Below are positions 2,755-52,618 of a stretch of DNA of 64,000 nt, piece by piece. Source of the DNA: Eledone cirrhosa (lineage: Eukaryota); assembly GCA_964016885.1 (NCBI GenBank), contig OZ024761.1:29574001-29638000 (forward strand), written 5' to 3'. The position numbers and the translations under genes were made by a program. How positions within the stretch are numbered: position 1 is the stretch's first letter; each line of letters begins with the position of its first letter. The notes beneath the pieces are model-generated. The model was not told the origin of the DNA and made no database searches. It worked only from the letters and a program-made list of their open reading frames with translations.

Positions 2755-3784
2755 GTTTCATATTCCACAATGCTTCAAGCAATCAAACACACATATACAT
2801 ATATATAAATACATTTACAAAATTATTATTTAAAAACACCATAATCTAGATGAGTGGGAATAGCATCTATTACATAACACTTACACGTGTTTCATTGTAT
2901 CCATTACATCTAAGTATTGGATCGCTAATACTTGATTATTTTAATATATATATATAATGCAAGTGTGGAAAAATAAATGACAGTGATAATGATGATGTAT
3001 ATATATATATATATTATATATATATATATTGATTCAAATCTATATGTTTGATGAGCAGCTCAATACTGGAGTTGGATCTATCATATCAATTAAGACCAAG
3101 AACCGAACATCTGTGAAACATGTTATGTTCGATAATGAATGAAAAACAAATATTTTAAAGTGAAACATCATTCTTTCATACGTAATGTAAACAATATGCT
3201 CACTACAAACCTATAATACAGAGATATCTTACAAAAAATACATATTTTTATTGGAATCACCCCATGTTAGTATTGGTAACACCTACAGTAATTAATATAC
3301 ATTACTAAATAACCTACATATATACAAAGGCAACAGAAAAACAAACAGTCCTTTCTCTTCAGTCAACCTCTGGAAATCACTATAGTTTCAGTTCATTCAA
3401 GGTTGAAACTATTCATTCCAGAGCACGAGATATGTATATATATACGTATATATCAGTTATATTGCAATAAATGCTGGCATTAACCATGTTCAGCAATCAA
3501 TGTGGTTGAAGTGTTGGTGGTGGTGACACACACATGCATACGCATACACACAAATATAGATGCCTGCAGATACACTGACACATAGAGAGACAAAGACACA
3601 TACATACCAGAACAACACAGACAAAAAACTAATCTAAGATAAATCTCCAGGCTCAAAAGTCTACAAAGTAGGTTTTTAGTCTCATCCTTTCATTCCTTTT
3701 CTTCCTTCGTTAATTAATTTCTTTGTTTATTTGTTCATTTAGTCATTAGTTAGTTCAATTAACAATTGATTACATCATTGTAAC

Positions 3785-4273
3785 CACCTCAACTACAATT
3801 ACTATAACTATAACCACAACCACCACTATAACCACCACCAATACCACTACAACCTCCACTACAACAACCACCACCACCACCACTAATACTCCAAACACCA
3901 TCACCACAACCACCACCACAACCACCACCACCACTACAACCATCACCACCACTACAATCACCACAACCACTACAACCCCTACAACCACCACCACTACAAC
4001 CACCACAACCACCACTACAACCACCACCACTACAACCACTACAACCCCTACAACCATCACCATCACTACAACCACCACAACCACTACAAACCCTACAACC
4101 ACCACCACAACCACCACTACAACCACCACTACAACCACCACCACTACAACCCCTACAACCACCACTACAAACCCTACGACCACCACTACAACCACCACTA
4201 CTACAACCACCACTACAACCACCACCACTACAACCACCACTACAACCACCACCACTACAACCACTACAACCAA
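3785..4273. repeat. Degenerate (ACC/ACA/ACT)n trinucleotide array
   Basis: Simple repeat. Explains the poly-V and GCS ORFs. Confidence 0.95.
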
Positions 4274-4595
4274 TAGTTATCAAACCAAAATAACAACAAC
4301 AAAAATCGGTAACAGACTAAAGATTCCAGAAATAAATCCATCAAACAACAACAGCAATAATAATAATAATAATAATAAATATATTCATTAACTATCACAG
4401 GTGATAATCTTTGGTATTTACAGGTAAGTGGTGGGTTTTTTTATCTGGCGGATTTTTTTGATTTTTTTTTTTCGTTTTTCACCAATTTCTTTCTTTTTTT
4501 GTCCTTATGTCTTCCAAGGAATGGATAAAAGAATAATTTGACAACATTGCTTGGGTAATATCTAACAAGGCCTTGGAGCTACAGTAGTGCAGGTT

Positions 4596-5900
4596 ATATA
4601 TATATATAGGCAGGAAGGCAGGGAGACATACACTTATATACACATACACATATACACAGGCATACAGACATACATATTATACACATATACACAGATACAC
4701 ATATACACAGGCATACAGACATACATATTGACACATACAGGTATATATACATAGAGGCAGGAAGGCAGGGAGAGACAGACATACACTTATATACACATAC
4801 ACATATACACAGGCATACAGACATACATATTAACACATACAGGTATATATATAAAGGCAGGAAGGCAGGGTGAGACAGATATACACTTATACACACATAC
4901 ACATATACACAGGCATACAGACATACATATTGACACATACAGGTATATATATATAGGCAGGAAGGCAGGGAGACATACACTTATATACACATACACATAT
5001 ACACAGGCATACAGACATACATACACTTATACACACATACACATATACACAGGCATACAGACATACATATTGACACATGCAGGTATATACATATATAGGC
5101 AGGAAGGCAGGGAGAGACAGGCATACACTTACACACACATACACAGGCATACAGACATACATATTGACACATACAGGTATATATATATAGGCAGGAAGGC
5201 AGGGAGAGACAGACATACACTTATACACACATACACATATACACAGGCATACAGACATACATATTGACACATACAGGTATATATAGGCAAGAACACAGGG
5301 AGAGACACACATACACACAAACACATGCACATATACACATAAACACAGGGAAACACATACACAGAGACACACACACACACAGGGATATACACATACATAG
5401 ACACAAACAGATATATATAGACAGAAACACAGGGAGAGACAGACACACACACACACACTCACACACACAGGGGCACACAGACAGATATACACTCACATAG
5501 ACACACACACAGGGACACACAAACACACACACAGACACAGACATACACACACAGACAGGTGCACATGCACGCACACAAACACACACAGGGACACACAAAC
5601 ACACATAGACACAGACATACACACACACACACAGGGACACACAAACACACATAGACACAGATATACACACACATAGACAGGTGCAGAAGCACGCACACAC
5701 ACACACGGGGACACACAAACACACACAGACATACACACGCATAGACAGGTGCACATGCACGCACACACATGGGGACACACAAACACAGACATACACACAT
5801 AGACACAGACACACACACACACAAATATATATAGACATGAAAACACAGTAACACACACACACACTGACACACACACATAGACACACACTGACACACACAC
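4596..5900. repeat. About 100-bp minisatellite (AGGCAGGAAGGCAGGGAGA...) grading into degenerate (CA)n
   Basis: Unit start recurs at about 4608, 4755, 4855, 4955, 5097 and 5189. Confidence 0.85.
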
Positions 5901-6044
5901 TTTTATCTGTGCATGTCTATGTATATTTATACAGATATTCATGGGTGTGTGTTTATGCATATAAATATATATGCATATATGCATGAACACATATATAACT
6001 ATGTATATATACAAATATATGTGTGTGCATGTGTGTGTGTATAG

Positions 6045-6082
<38 letters not shown>

Positions 6083-6113
6083 TATATAAACATATATTTG
6101 TGTGTGTGTATAT

Positions 6114-6144
<31 letters not shown>

Positions 6145-6340
6145 ATACATACACAGCAGGGAAAGTGGGCATTAAACTATGTTGATGACGTACATACACA
6201 TGCGTAGATTATATATATATATACACACACAGACACATACATCCATCAATATATGCATATTATATAAACAAACATATTTATGTAGGTGCATGTGTGTATA
6301 TATATTATATACACACACACACACACACACATATATTTAT

Positions 6341-6391
<51 letters not shown>

Positions 6392-6859
6392 AGGTTATAT
6401 TATTTACTTTGCTCATTAGCCAAAGTAATAACAATTTCTTATTCGTTTTTTTTAAGGATTAATAAGAGAGAAGGGGCAGACATGTTAATATAAATCACAA
6501 CTTAGAATGTTTGGTTTGGTTTGGTTTGGTTTGGTTTGTTGTTTGTTTGTTTTTGTTGGGGGGAGAGATGGGGGTTGTGTCTCACCACCACCATCACCAC
6601 CATCACCACCATTGCCATCAACGCCATCATCACCACCAACAATGACCACTATCACCATCACCATCATCACAACCACCAGCACCACCATCACAGCCACCAT
6701 CACCATTGTCACCACCCTCACCACCATCGCCATCATTACCACCACCACCGCCACTGCCACCACCATCACCACCACCACCACCATCATCACCACCATCATC
6801 GTCATCATCACCACCAGCATCATCCCAATCACCACAACCATCATCATCATTACCACCAC

Positions 6860-8140
6860 TTTACGGTCTGAGTTCAAATCCCGCCGAAGCTAGCTTTGCC
6901 TTTCATCCTTGCAGGGTCAATAAAATAAAGTACCAGTAATGCATTGGGATTGATTTCAAATACTTTCTCCTCCCTCACAATTGTTAGCTTTGTGCTTAAG
7001 TCAAAAATCATTATAATATTATTATTACATGGATTGGCAGTATCGGTAGAGGATCAGAGGCCATGCTTTGCAGCATAGAGTTACGACCCTTTAACTTTAC
7101 GGCCTTTCATCCTTACAGGGTCGATAAAATAAAGTACCAGTAATGCTCTGGGGTAATTGCTGGCCTTGTGCCTAAAGTAGAAACAATTATTATTACATCC
7201 CTTTATGTTCAGAGTTCAAATCCTGCTAGGGTTGATAAAATAAAGTAGCGGTAAAAAACAGGGTTCGATTAAATCCACTTACACTTCCCCCAAAATTGTT
7301 GACTGTGTGCTTAAATCAGAAACCATTAGCGTCGGGTGGTTCAGGATTGGTGGGGAACCTGAATCAACTCGGGGTGACTATCCCCCCCCCCCCCATTGGG
7401 GAATTTTCATTGTTGTATTTTTCTTGTTTACTGTTATTGTTTTCCTATTTTTTACTCGATTTTTGTGTAAAACTCCCACTGTCCCCATCTATTCTATTGT
7501 TTACTATATATCGGCCCTTGTGGCCAATAAATTAAACCATGGCAGTAGCGGTAGAGGGTCGGACGCCATGCTTTCCAGCATAGTTACGTCCCTTTACGAT
7601 CTGAGTTCAAATCCCGCCGAGGTTGACTTTGCCTTTCATCCTTACGGGGTCGATAAAATAAAGTACCAGTAATGTACTGGTAAATCGCTGGCCTTGTGCC
7701 TAAAGTAGAAACAATTATTATAGGGCATTATTATTATGGTCGTGGATTGGCAGTATCGGTAGAGGGTCGGACGCCATGCTTTGACGCATAGAGTTACGGC
7801 CCTTGCCATTCTGAGTTCAAATCCCGCCGAGGTTAACTTTGCCTTTCATCCTTACGGGGTCGATAAAATAAAGTACCAGTAATGTACTGGGTAATTGCAG
7901 GCCTTGTGCCAAAAGTAGAAACAATTATTATTATAGGGCACCGGATTGGCAGTATTGGTAGAGGGTTGGGCACCATGCTTTGCAGCATAGAGTTACGGCC
8001 CTTTATGATCCGAGTTCAAATCCCACCGAGGTTAGCTTTGCCTTTCATCCTCATGGGGTCGATAAAATAAAGTACCAGTAATATACTGGAGTTATTGCTG
8101 GCCCTTGTGCCAAAAGTAGAAACAATTATTATTATTATTT
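6860..8140 (+). mobile_element. Cluster of six same-orientation family 1 SINE copies plus another 3'-tail fragment
   Basis: Repeated GATAAAATAAAGTA cores at about 6920, 7120, 7235, 7650, 7860 and 8060, separated by (ATT)n tails. 7330-7535 resembles 35230-35470. Confidence 0.85.
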
Positions 8141-8940
8141 GCCAGAGGGGCATCAGATAAGAGAGACATTACAAACACAAGTTACAGTATGGAGGTGGGG
8201 GGGGGGGGGGGGGGCAAACAAACTAATAAACAAAACATTTAATTAAAAAAATATATTTTTTTAAAATATAAAATAAGGGAATGAATATAGTGGGATGGAT
8301 ATATTGTGTGTGTGTGTGTGTTTTGTGAATGCATGCATAGTTGCACACAAACATGTATACAATGACTACACACATACATGCACACAAACATACATATGCA
8401 CACAAACACATACTCACAAACACACACACATACACATATCTACATACGCCCATTTCACACATACATATTGCAAACACTCACATAAACATGCACAAACGCA
8501 CGCACGCATACATTCACACAAACACACTTTACACATACACACTGTACACACACATGCATACACACACACAGCTTCAAACATATATTGCACAAACACACAC
8601 ACACAGAAACACTCACACACACTTGCATACATATATATGCACACACATAAACACATGGTATGTATTAAAGACACCAAATTCCCTCCAAAATTATGTCAAT
8701 ATAGCTTCAGGGAATTGTGGGGCTGTTACTAATTAGTATCTAATGTACTGTTAGATATGTCTGGAAACAAATTGAACTATATATATATATACATATATAC
8801 ACACTTATATGTATATATATATATATATGCACAAGTGTCTGTGTATACACTAAATATAAGTATGTATACATGCATTTATATATATATATATACACACATA
8901 CACATACATGTATATATATATATGCACATATATATACACC

Positions 8941-18977: not shown

Positions 18978-19105
18978 GACCCCGGCGGCTGAGCTCTTGC
19001 CGTTTCAACAGCTAGTTCAAAATATAACCATACTCTGCCACCCCAAGTATCAAGTACTCAGGTGAGTAATGGTTTAACCAGTTTCAAACTGAATCCATCC
19101 TGATT
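18978..19105. mobile_element. Hammerhead family B remnant (inverted 3' half plus forward tail)
   Basis: Homologous to 52156-52340. Minus strand GAAACGGC-aagagctca-GCCGCC. Tail TACTCTGCC..GTATCAAGTACTC. Ends in (TA)n. Confidence 0.6.
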
Positions 19106-19344: not shown

Positions 19345-19900
19345 AGAAATGACTTCTACAGGAATAGATAGAATGACTTCTACTAGAACTGTTTTATTCA
19401 TATGAAATCATTAGGAATATCCTGATGATTTCATATGGATGAAACAGTTCTAGTCCTGTAGAAGCAATTTCTATATTAAATAATAGTTTCTTATATAGGC
19501 ACAAGGCCAGCAATTTTGGGGGAGGGAAAGTCGATTAAATCTACCACAGTGCATTACTGGTACTTTATTTTATCGACCCTGTAAGGATGAAAGGCAAAGT
19601 TAACTTCGGTGGGATTTGAACTCAGATCATGAAGAGCCATAACTCTATGCTGCAAAGCATGGTGTCTGATGCTCTACCAATACTGCCAATCCACTGCCCT
19701 TTTCTATATTAAATAATGATTAAATAATAATTAAATAATTGTTTTTACTTTTTGGCACAAGGCCAGCAATTACCCAGTGCATTACTGGTACTTTATTTTA
19801 TCGACCCCGTAAGGATGAAATAATTAAATAATGATGTTTACACTCTACTAATGTATTGAGTATCTTACTACCTGTGGTTACCCCTGATTGAACCCAAAAC
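19345..19900. mobile_element. Hammerhead family A fold-back element interrupted by two SINEs
   Basis: CTGATGA 19422-28, GAAAC 19441-45, GTA 19458-60, with an inverted degenerate copy on the left. The family tail resumes at about 19835-19900. Confidence 0.75.
19485..19700 (-). mobile_element. Full-length family 1 SINE with 17-bp target-site duplication
   Basis: TTTCTATATTAAATAAT at 19468-19484 and 19701-19717. Confidence 0.9.
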
Positions 19901-30718: not shown

Positions 30719-30920
30719 GAGTCCTGGGTTCAATTGGAGGTAACCACAATAAGTAAGGTACTCAATACATTAGTAGAGTATATACAAAGTTTAATAAAGA
30801 AATGGCTTCTACAGGACTAGAACTGTTTCATTCAAAGGAAATCACCAGGGCTTTCCTGATGATTTCCTTCAAATGAAACAGTTCTAGTCCTGTAGCAGCC
30901 ATTTCTATATTAAACTTTAT
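30719..30920. mobile_element. Hammerhead family A fold-back element
   Basis: Arms about 30787-30849 and 30855-30918. Plus-strand core: CTGATGA 30856-62, GAAAC 30875-79, GTA 30892-94. Minus-strand core is CTGGTGA. Tail on the left arm. Right end in (TA)n. Confidence 0.8.
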
Positions 30921-32009
30921 ATTTATATATATATATATTATATATTTATTGTGCTTTATAGATAGACGTAACAATTCATACTCTGACAACTGAATTGTCT
31001 CATGGCCCACCAAAGACAGAAATTATTATTTCACACAATCTCTACAAGGATATAAATAACTTAATATATCATTGACATTGTCGTTGTCATCATCATCAAT
31101 ACTGTCATCATTATTATCATTGTGTATTTCCATTCAATGTCTACACCATATCATCAATTCCTCTGTGTGTGTGTGTGTGTGTGTGAATATGCATGCTTGT
31201 GTATGTGTGCGTATGCTTATGTGTGTGTTGGAACTCTAGACAGATACAGAGAGAAAGGGAGAGAGCAAGAGAAATGTTGAGTATGTATGTGTGTGTGTGC
31301 GTGTATGTGTGTGTGTGTGTATGAGAGAGAGAGCAGTTTTGTTTAGAATAAATGAATGCAATGAGGTATAAATGGCCTTATAGCATCATATATATATATA
31401 TAATATATATATATATATATAGGGAGGGAGATAGAGAAGAGGAGGGAAATAGTGTTAGAGAGAGAGAGACAGCAGCTAATAAAACAAAGTATTCAGTTGG
31501 TATTTCTAGTTATAGCAATTCAATTTTTACAACTGTCCCACCCCACAGCAGGTCCACACCAACACCTCCCTCCGTCACGCCTCCCCACCAAGGGCCCATC
31601 CTCCTTCCATTTTATTCCATTCATAAAAAAGCAGGTAGGTAGTGTGGGTAGTTATGTAGGTAGGGAGTTTGTTAACAATGCTTTAATTGTTACACTGAAC
31701 AGAACAACAGACTATTAAGAAGACAAGATAGTCCCTACTGGTTGGTTCATTGGCTAAATCAACAGTAAGACTGGGGAAGGAGGAGAAGGGACAGAAATAG
31801 CCCAGGGACGCCTTCTGCATTTCTGATTGGCAGGTTGGCAGAAAGAAGCAGCTTGCAATAGAAAATAGAAAATAAAATATCATGCAAACGTTGCGAAGAA
31901 GACGAAAACAAAAAAAGATACAAAGAAATAAAAAATGTGATTCAATTATTTAAACAATTCAATGCAAAAGTGTTGAAATTCCCACAACCATACACTCCAT
32001 CCTATATCT

Positions 32010-50580: not shown

Positions 50581-50601
50581 ATTATTATATATATCATGTT
50601 C

Positions 50602-50742
50602 AATATAGAAATGGCTTCAAAAGAAATCATCAGGAAACAGTTCTAGTTCTGTAGAAGCCATTTCTATAGTAAACATGTTTACACTACTAATGTGTTGAGT
50701 ACCTTACTTACTGTGGTTACCCCTGATTAAACCTGGGATTCA
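50602..50742. mobile_element. Collapsed family A element
   Basis: ATAGAAATGGCTTC...AAATCATCAGGAAACAGTTCTAGTTCTGTAGAAGCCATTTCTAT plus the family tail ending in (TA)n. Confidence 0.7.
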
Positions 50743-51374
50743 TATATATATATATATATAGTAATAATAATAAATGCGAAGACTAAAATCCAAAGAGGGC
50801 TCAATAAGGATAAATATATATCAAATATATAAGAACCTCAGCGATTCTTTGCTTAAACTTTAATCTGTTATTTTAATAAATTAATATATATATATATTTC
50901 ATTTTGGTGCCATGACAAAAAGCTCCCAGTCCAAACTGTAGAGTGGTCGTGTGTCACGGCAAAGAATGACCAGTCTACACAGTAGAGTGGTCGTTCTGGT
51001 GCTATGACAAAAAGCACCCAGTACACAATGTACACAAAATGTGGTTAGCATTAGGAGTAGCATCCAGTGATAGAAACCAAGCCAGACACAGTTCTGTATG
51101 AGCAAGTCATTGTCATCTGATGTGACATCACTCACAATGGGACAACTGGTCTAACCCATGCTAGCGTGGAAAAATGGATGCTAAATAATGACAATGATGA
51201 TATATATATTCATATATATATAGATGTTACATGTATCCTAGTTGTTAAAATGGATCCTGCAAACTGTATCCTGCAAATTGTAAGAGGTGACTAAAAGAGT
51301 TGGTGTCAGGAAGAACATCCGGTCGTATAACAGTCTCAAAACATCATGGTCAAACCCATGCCAGCATAAACAAT

Positions 51375-51730: not shown

Positions 51731-51954
51731 TGCATTGAGCAGAGGGAGGCTTTTGAAAAAGATAATGCTTCTGGTCATCCATCCCACATATTTGTTTTTT
51801 TTCGTTTGCAACTTAAATATATGCATATATATATATTGTTATGCTTTGGGATATATATATACATGTGCGCATGTATGTATAACTTTATGAATATATATGT
51901 GTAATTGTGTGTGTATATGTATATATATATATATATACACATAAGTATATATAT

Positions 51955-52066
51955 GAGTTCTGGGTTCAATCGGGGTAACCACAGTAAGTAAGGTACTCAA
52001 TACATTAGTGGAGTGTACTGAACTAGAATTGTTTCTAGTCCTGTAGAAGCCATTTCTGTATTAAAT
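51955..52066. mobile_element. Rearranged family A remnant
   Basis: Inverted tail GGGTTCAATCGGGGTAACCACAGTAAGTAAGGTACTCAATAC joined to TTCTAGTCCTGTAGAAGCCATTTC. Flanked by TA-rich repeats. Confidence 0.7.
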
Positions 52067-52099
<33 letters not shown>

Positions 52100-52113: not shown

Positions 52114-52150
<37 letters not shown>

Positions 52151-52155
52151 GGAAA

Positions 52156-52340
52156 ATGTATGACCCCGACGGCAGAGCTCAAGCCGTTTCGACGGCTATT
52201 TCTGGAGTCTAGAAATAGCCGTTGAAGCGGCTTGAGCTCTGCCGTCGGGGTCATACATGTTCATATTACTCACTCTACTACCCTAAGTATTGAGTACTCT
52301 GGTGTGTGATGGTCCATCTGGTTCCTTACCACAACTCCTT
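52156..52340. mobile_element. Family B fold-back (48-bp arms) plus tail
   Basis: Arms 52156-52203 and 52211-52258 with 2 mismatches. Minus strand GAAACGGC-ttgagctct-GCCGTC is a hammerhead 3' half. Lies between (TA)n tracts. Confidence 0.75.
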
Positions 52341-52360
52341 TGTTATATATATATATATAT

Positions 52361-52550
52361 ATAGAAAAGCTTCTACAGGACTAGAACTGTTTCATTCATG
52401 AGAAATCATCAGGAAGCTGACTGTGATGATTTCTTACGAATGAAACAGTTCTAGTCCTGTAGAAGCTTTTCTATATTAAATATTTATATTCTGCTTTGTA
52501 TTGAGTACCTTACTTACTGTGGTTACTCCCGATTGAACCCGGGATAATCT
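52361..52550. mobile_element. Hammerhead family A fold-back element in (TA)n
   Basis: Arms 52361-52409 and 52424-52475, tail to GAACCCGGGA. (TA)n on both sides. Confidence 0.8.
52368..52418 (-). ncRNA. Type I hammerhead ribozyme (complete fold), family A
   Basis: AGCUUC-CUGAUGA-U-UUC-ucau-GAA-U-GAA-ACAG-uucuaguc-CUGU-A/GAAGCU: 6-bp stem I, 3-bp stem II, 4-bp stem III, GUA site. Confidence 0.8.
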
Positions 52551-52618
52551 TATATATATATATATATATATAAACCCATGCTAGCGTGGGAGATAGACGT
52601 TTAACGATGATGATGATG

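Follow-up and report, generated by a model that had tools for sequence, protein, structure and literature searches.

A putative pLTR hammerhead of a high-copy Hydra-clade Penelope-like element in a head-to-head stub of Eledone cirrhosa, predicted to be trapped in a hairpin at its own locus

Results and Discussion

The hammerhead motif and its two-armed stub

The window, i.e. the whole stretch of 64,000 nucleotides of Eledone cirrhosa DNA that was analysed (the host genome is 3.0 Gb), carries a hammerhead motif on its minus strand. The motif forms the inverted arm of a head-to-head stub of 190 bp, which derives from a Penelope-like element (PLE) and lies within (TA)n. The features of this stub and of the other copies in the window are the following.

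52368..52418, minus strand: type I hammerhead, supported by sequence, descriptor scan and stem I covariation
52360..52424, minus strand: inverted short arm, tailless, beginning 12 nt upstream of C3 and passing through the hammerhead into (TA)n
52424..52467, plus strand: forward-arm hammerhead remnant, starting at U4, with C3 and the 5' strand of stem I missing and loop II UUAC
52468..52550, plus strand: post-ribozyme stretch with ATTAAA and one-sided tail, equivalent to the pre-ORF 5' UTR of full-length elements
52344..52363, no strand: left (TA)n target
52551..52572, no strand: right (TA)n target
30719..30931, no strand: second two-armed stub, of a diverged subfamily, with loops CUUU and CUUC (82% identity over 194 nt by blastn)
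19364..19485, no strand: third two-armed stub, with loop AUAU
50586..50752, no strand: deleted or rearranged stub with tail
51946..52075, no strand: stub consisting of an inverted tail and a forward piece that starts in stem III

Read from 52418 to 52368, the minus strand gives AGCUUC / CUGAUGA / U UUC-UCAU-GAA U / GAA / ACAG-UUCUAGUC-CUGU / A / GAAGCU, that is, an open stem I of 6 bp, a stem II of 3 bp with a UCAU loop and a stem III of 4 bp with an 8-nt loop III, UUCUAGUC, that contains CUAG. These three helices surround a core in which C3 U4 G5 A6 N7 G8 A9, G12 A13 A14, A15.1-U16.1 and H17 are all present, C3 being nucleotide 52412 and H17 the A at 52374, with cleavage predicted between 52374 and 52373. 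The minus-strand hammerhead and cleavage position proposed in an initial annotation of this DNA were recovered as described there, and the sequence supports a conserved type I hammerhead with the palindromic loop III that it pointed out. Positions 10.1 and 11.1, usually a G-C pair and a feature of the type I consensus from which U-U exceptions have been published, are U and U and are not paired.

A strict descriptor (stem I of at least 6, stem II of at least 3 and stem III of at least 4 bp) matched once in the 64-kb window and never in 200 locally shuffled windows. Rfam returned no hammerhead match on 52290-52560 up to E = 10 (27 rows) and no hammerhead family among the 150 matches listed, out of 220, for the whole window. 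No contact between loop 1 and loop 2, as in fast hammerheads, is evident, the sequence of loop II varying freely and stem I likely beginning at the 5' end of the RNA (see below).

The two arms of the stub are joined through an overlap of 1-2 nt at 52424-52425. In the plus arm a G (52423) occupies position 3 and the 5' strand of stem I is absent, as had been noted before, and two further earlier observations apply throughout the window, namely that the stem II loop differs between copies (UCAU, UUAC, CUUU, CUUC and AUAU) and that every arm retaining both positions 10.1 and 11.1 has U at each. The inverted arms of other copies reach about +48 to +67 from C3 in 38 of 40 cases, according to an alignment in which (TA)n inflates the upper values. 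A different palindromic repeat at 52148-52343, a hairpin of ~115 bp with a one-sided extension, shares the (TA)n of the stub; it has a partial copy at 18978-19073, and the same neighbour is also found beside family copies at four other loci of the genome (L003, L016, L112 and L131).

The parent element

Near-identical copies of the motif have an upstream region with the TATA-like motif TATAAATA, a downstream ATTAAA, a one-sided tail and (TA)n surroundings. The 28-nt tail motif has 15,048 exact matches in the genome, and among 99 tail copies (TA)4, the target, was found within 53 nt of it in 85 and at 24-25 nt in 55. One family copy abuts a reverse transcriptase (RT) fragment, for which a first look at the genome gave 22,945 candidates; 150 of these were scored and 20 loci were taken at 8-9 kb. 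Several of the 20 have the order pLTR-ORF-pLTR with a hammerhead in both repeats, often with an inverted pLTR upstream.

Locus L078 holds a full-length pLTR-RT-GIY-YIG-pLTR unit with an inverted pLTR upstream, and the stretch corresponding to 52468..52550 occurs in it upstream of the ATG and again after the 3' pLTR. The ORF of 713 amino acids, counted from the ATG, contains RWR at 38, DKT at 116, YRDD at 347, CxCX5C at 566-574, a C-terminal GIY-YIG at 585-604, CxxC at 666-669 and CxH at 694-696. Its CCHH region consists of two Cys inside the GIY-YIG core (589 and 598) and of His 617/619; the second Cys is missing in L072. A Pfam search with this ORF gave GIY-YIG with an E value of 0.067, which is below the cut-off, and no family name for the RT. 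The same ORF, with 71-91% amino-acid identity on the main segments, is present in L072-L075, elements of the window's own subfamily with hammerheads 94-98% identical, in which it is frameshifted. Uninterrupted ORFs were seen at C21:3201971, C4:230966963 and C410:39520 and in several frames of 758 amino acids, and the many uninterrupted ORFs suggest recent activity of the AGATTC subfamily.

The L078 repeat unit measures 5.4 kb, ~2.5 kb of which are simple repeats (elements of the Hydra clade are generally under 3 kb). Its 3' UTR (5700-8390) contains ~2.5 kb of mixed (TA)n/(TG)n that have been copied faithfully into an upstream partial tandem, and the element thus carries and spreads its own target-like microsatellites. 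At L034 two family copies (3700-4500 and 7360-7770, minus strand) lie between exon-like frames, apparently in an intron, of a host gene that we take from its motifs to be a receptor tyrosine kinase.

Taken by its motifs and by comparison with reference proteins by eye, the parent appears to be a coding PLE of the Hydra clade, of which the hammerhead would be the pLTR ribozyme. A Naiad PLE, the first guess from the RT piece, was rejected, as the endonuclease (EN) is C-terminal rather than N-terminal and the motif is DKT rather than DKA. A non-LTR retrozyme, defined in the accessible part of the literature as non-coding tandem units with a hammerhead, was rejected as well, since the sequence is the pLTR of coding elements and the window copy is head-to-head, not tandem.

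Conservation of the U10.1-U11.1 pair

An exact core pattern of 32 places with U at both 10.1 and 11.1 had 24,294 matches genome-wide, against 7 for the same pattern with a nucleotide other than U at both positions and 0 for the reversed controls. Among 160 hammerheads from RT- and tail-anchored loci, selected for matching a reference at 34 or more of 45 positions, U was found at 10.1 in 151 and at 11.1 in 159. The U-U pair is therefore fixed family-wide. Loop II and N7 differ between subfamilies, the core being held. Pair 4 of stem I is A-U in 38, C-G in 10 and otherwise composed in 2 of the 50 arms with upstream context, and the covariation score of stem I was reached by none of 500 shuffles (16 hand-picked distinct rows), this covariation being traceable to one or two changes that subfamilies have inherited. 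In these rows neither stem II nor stem III varies, and neither covaries.

That the U-U pair should be a surprise, on the other hand, is not borne out, as the variant is already in print. The accessible text of Perreault 2011 (PMC3088659) describes U10.1-U11.1 as a natural variant and the best tolerated mispair, and a text search of its supplement, as far as accessible, found no 'U10.1'. In File S2 of Craig 2021 (PMC8557442), also consulted in its accessible part, we count U at 10.1 as well as at 11.1 for 14 of the 25 Hydra-clade families, and these hammerheads are placed under 'canonical HHR motifs'. Neither the U-U variant nor the clade in which it occurs here is new.

The 5' ends of the copies

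The 5' ends were mapped in 99 of the first 100 exact tail matches, all from the first 39 Mb of one contig, by local alignment to five references; judged by eye, the boundaries are off for L156, L153, L197, L205 and L220. Relative to C3, 47 of the 99 ends lie at -9 to +3, 4 at -36 to -10, 31 at +4 to +74 and 17 further upstream, a pile-up within -9 to +3 with a binomial p of 4e-23 and a peak at -6/-5, the first bases of stem I. The loss of C3 and stem I at the junction, pointed out in the initial annotation, is real at this locus, but it is the commonest outcome in the family rather than a one-off. No peak was detected at the predicted cleavage site, around which +/-3 nt hold 4 of 31 ends (p 0.37), two of them looking like duplicates; exactly at this site starts 1 of the 99 copies, which stem I microhomology can explain. 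An inverted hammerhead arm is carried by 40 of the 49 copies that start at -13 to +3. The arms of the family have two fixed 3' ends, the inverted arm ending soon after the ribozyme without tail and the tail arms ending 24-25 nt past the tail motif in 55 of 99.

Genome-wide, 1,340 arms of the AGATTC subfamily diverge after -5, 1,275 diverge after -6 and 7,239 continue, point mutants making up 5-7 per 100 listed among the divergers. The count of continuing arms is skewed between the strands (2,210 forward and 5,029 reverse), the other patterns being near balance; this skew is probably the effect of a large tandem array or of the assembly. In the window's subfamily 634 arms diverge after -6 and 560 continue, and most of the continuing arms listed run far upstream.

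In 65 of the 72 arms that hold TATAAATA, A(-6) follows the start of this motif at a distance of 29-31 nt, and the spacers between the two have different sequences in three subfamilies. The distance from a TATA box to the start of transcription is about 30 nt, and we take CCAGATT to be Inr-like. By hand count in the AGATTC subfamily, -6 is followed in the cDNA by C at 78, by A at 13 and by T at 9 of 100 listed sites, and CC is added after -5 in 17 of 100 listed; some of these C's fit microhomology to (TC)n or to the tail. A check of the extra base in the window's subfamily discriminated weakly, with C at 11 of 30 loci, at 9 of which fold-back does not predict C, several being readable as forward-arm junctions. 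An untemplated G at the 5' junctions of L1 and SVA has been attributed to copying of the cap (PMC3287187). The 5' ends at the front edge of the motif are likely to mark the start of the element's uncut RNA.

A model for the origin of the stubs

We consider it reasonably probable, as an overall reading, that the motif is the pLTR hammerhead of a high-copy Hydra-clade PLE, that the head-to-head stub in which it lies is inserted in (TA)n and is predicted to lock it into a hairpin (see below), and that the stubs are likely two joined run-off cDNAs of uncleaved RNA, primed in the 5' UTR. The first transcribed nucleotide would be the A that opens stem I, about 30 nt below TATAAATA, a position that would leave the ribozyme without loop 1, and cleavage would then remove a capped leader of 45 nt. 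The GIY-YIG endonuclease would nick both strands of (TA)n, and both nicked strands would serve the RT as primers, cDNA synthesis starting at two points of the 5' UTR downstream of the ribozyme. Copying uncut linear RNA, the RT would reach the cap after about 60 or 130 nt, stop there and add C, and the two cDNA ends would anneal by microhomology, in the window's subfamily through the palindromic AGCT, to give a head-to-head stub. For a full copy to arise, the template would have to be circular or a read-through RNA, or synthesis would have to jump to the 3' repeat.

In the window stub the broken forward arm, which starts at U4, would fit the run-off class, and the complete arm, which extends to -12, 6 nt past the putative start, would have come from a read-through template. 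This extension past the start counts against the start-site reading, as do the TATA-less internal promoter of D. virilis Penelope, according to the accessible text of PMC2377424, and the ambiguity of the extra C in the AGATTC subfamily, where stem I fold-back predicts C too.

More tentatively, and with slightly less than even confidence, we propose that the capped transcript begins at stem I and that self-cleavage would act as a self-decapping switch. Priming of the RT in the 5' UTR would yield a retrovirus-like strong-stop cDNA, about half of the copies would each consist of two such cDNAs with their ends joined, a full copy would require either a ribozyme-made circle or transfer of the strand to the 3' repeat, and the U-U pair would tune cleavage low, so that capped uncut RNA persists. 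Start site, cap and cleavage are here what we infer from the sequences. If the proposal is true, PLE replication would involve a strong-stop followed by transfer (or a circle), and the ribozyme would be a switch between translation and template.

The main rival explanation, which we think rather unlikely, keeps the same element and regards the 5'-end hotspot as structural, caused by RT stalling, by cDNA fold-back at stem I or by antisense self-priming, without a link to the start of transcription. It draws on the ability of cDNA ends at -6 to pair with the other strand of stem I, on the palindromic nature of AGCT together with the dominance of perfect AGCT junctions in the window's subfamily, and on the extra C of the AGATTC subfamily, which fold-back predicts; self-priming on antisense RNA is also the explanation given for head-to-head palindromes of rotifer Penelopes in the accessible text of Arkhipova 2013 (PMC3846280). 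Long fold-back products are rare, however (2 of 100 listed, by hand count), and the CC found after -5 is predicted neither by the element nor by fold-back. Moreover, the spacing of the TATA motif to A(-6) is conserved across the three spacer sequences, and the two 3' sites at which the arms end are fixed and differ from each other, in keeping with priming having taken place twice on sense RNA.

Activity of the hammerhead in the family and at this locus

Another explanation is that the hammerhead is dead family-wide and owes its persistence only to recent amplification or to a role in protein binding or as a promoter. The absence of a 5'-end pile-up at the cleavage site and the predicted instability of stem II would be expected from it; according to the accessible texts, insertion by the element Poseidon_Ac (PAc) in vitro is unaffected by hammerhead mutants (PMC11167929), and Perreault 2011 (PMC3088659) rejected candidates with mispairs next to the core unless activity had been measured. 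We nevertheless regard this explanation as unlikely, as the core is maintained while subfamilies differ in loop II, N7 and stem I pair 4, the U-U core recurs, in the accessible part of PMC8557442, in Hydra-clade elements of cnidarians, a sea cucumber and a copepod, and one subfamily extends the loop III palindrome to ACUAGU. In this subfamily (L097, L112, L190 and L195) N7 is A and loop III is UACUAGUC; the extended palindrome would strengthen an intermolecular helix III.

Metazoan PLE hammerheads show low cleavage in vitro. Given the U-U pair, the short and predictedly weak stem II and the apparent lack of a tertiary contact and of loop 1, cleavage in intact elements of this family is likely to be slow and to rely on help from protein or from dimers formed through loop III.

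For the isolated 51-mer, the predicted pair probabilities are 0.72-0.99 in stem I, 0.64-0.70 in stem III and 0.06-0.08 in stem II; the exact hammerhead fold has P = 0.018, and the folding energy is no better than that of shuffles (z -0.36). The claim of the initial annotation that the minus strand folds fully is too strong: all the sequence parts are present and stems I and III are predicted in isolation, but stem II is predicted to be weak, and the claim is not reflected in the folding energy. In place, the copy is not predicted to adopt a ribozyme fold: in the context of 52341-52560 the probability of stems I and III falls to 0.0, because the two arms pair with each other, and a transcript of both arms gives a hairpin of 50 bp at -81.5 kcal/mol (z -19 against shuffles). 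The hammerhead at 52368..52418 is thus predicted to be trapped in a long hairpin at its own locus. As it also lacks a TATA box, the window stub is probably inert.

That this locus makes an active self-cleaving minus-strand RNA, as the initial annotation implied, is therefore very unlikely. All core nucleotides and the three stems are present, U-U is the best tolerated mismatch at 10.1-11.1 (PMC3088659, accessible text), and the loop III strands can pair between molecules, the intermolecular duplex being predicted at -12.8 kcal/mol against -1.4 for the hairpin. Set against this, besides the missing TATA box, are the poor in vitro cleavage of metazoan PLE hammerheads and the order of synthesis, since read-through of the minus strand would make the complementary arm first and the 50-bp hairpin is predicted to win. 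The reading of the 110-bp inverted repeat as a MITE or microRNA precursor with an incidental hammerhead, suggested by the strong hairpin and by sub-threshold Rfam MIR matches at 52290-52560, has a negligible probability, as these matches are all far below the gathering scores and were discarded as hairpin noise, the arms, which are pieces of a retroelement pLTR, have junctions that vary and a tail on one side only, and the association with RT-GIY-YIG ORFs refutes it.

Comparison with known elements

The comparisons in this section rest on the accessible parts of the papers cited. With the Hydra clade of C-terminal EN+ PLEs (Craig 2021, PMC8557442) the family shares a single ORF with RW[KR], DKT, CxCX5C, a C-terminal GIY-YIG, CxxC and CxH, as well as a (TA)n target, a pLTR hammerhead, an inverted 5'-truncated copy and a one-sided tail. 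The RWR of the L078 ORF is also found in Hydra-1_Crog, and the N-terminal and RT motifs resemble those of published Hydra proteins by eye. Hydra-1_Obim, in contrast, has G10.1 and a stem II of 7 bp and was judged by eye to be a different family. Compared with the clade, loop III is longer (8 nt versus 1-3 nt), the tail measures ~70 nt instead of 30-40, the unit reaches 5.4 kb in L078 through the simple repeats of its 3' UTR, and there are at least 24,294 cores. Neither U-U nor a start site at stem I is commented on in the accessible text of Craig 2021, and a search for the stem III-loop motif in the accessible text of its supplement, where line breaks may hide matches, gave none.

The variant of Perreault 2011 (PMC3088659) likewise has a stem II that opens with a U-U mismatch, a rare variant there and one that is fixed in a whole retroelement family here. 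The minimal hammerheads of PLEs (Cervera and de la Pena 2014, PMC4209133) are also of type I, located in pLTRs and provided with a palindromic loop 3, have no clear tertiary contacts and many truncated or opposite-strand copies, and have been predicted to dimerise. However, they lack helix III and have a long helix II and a conserved G10.1-C11.1, whereas the present hammerhead has a helix III of 4 bp, a helix II of 3 bp and U-U.

In PAc (PMC11167929), too, two internal RT starts define the tail, the target is AT-rich, unprocessed RNA is the main template and no reads are found at the cleavage site, and its ribozyme is protein-assisted. PAc differs in belonging to another PLE clade and in having an ORF that starts inside the hammerhead, and the accessible text maps no start site at stem I and describes no run-off stubs. 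The Adineta vaga Penelope (Arkhipova 2013, PMC3846280) resembles the family by a putative TATA box and Inr in the pLTR, by palindromes at head-to-head junctions and by microhomology at the 5' junction; it differs by the antisense-RNA self-priming offered as explanation, and the paper predates the discovery of pLTR hammerheads.

The element represents a new family, present in very many copies, of a clade and with a hammerhead variant that are both known already. No precedent for the start-site and run-off (strong-stop) reading was met in the largely open-access literature searched, and the term 'strong-stop' had 0 occurrences in the PLE literature that was text-searched. The family provides a very large natural sample for two open questions on PLEs, the role of the hammerhead and the origin of pLTRs and inverted 5' copies. 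Its junction map gives a base-precise prediction of the RNA start and indicates uncut RNA as the usual template, and an intact-looking ORF and a 51-nt RNA are at hand for direct assay. Unrelated hammerhead families adjoin elements of this family at L067 (8641), L074 (6404) and L084 (5721, 6222 and 7642); among them, those of L074 and of L084 at 7642 have U at both 10.1 and 11.1, and one has U3 and A8.
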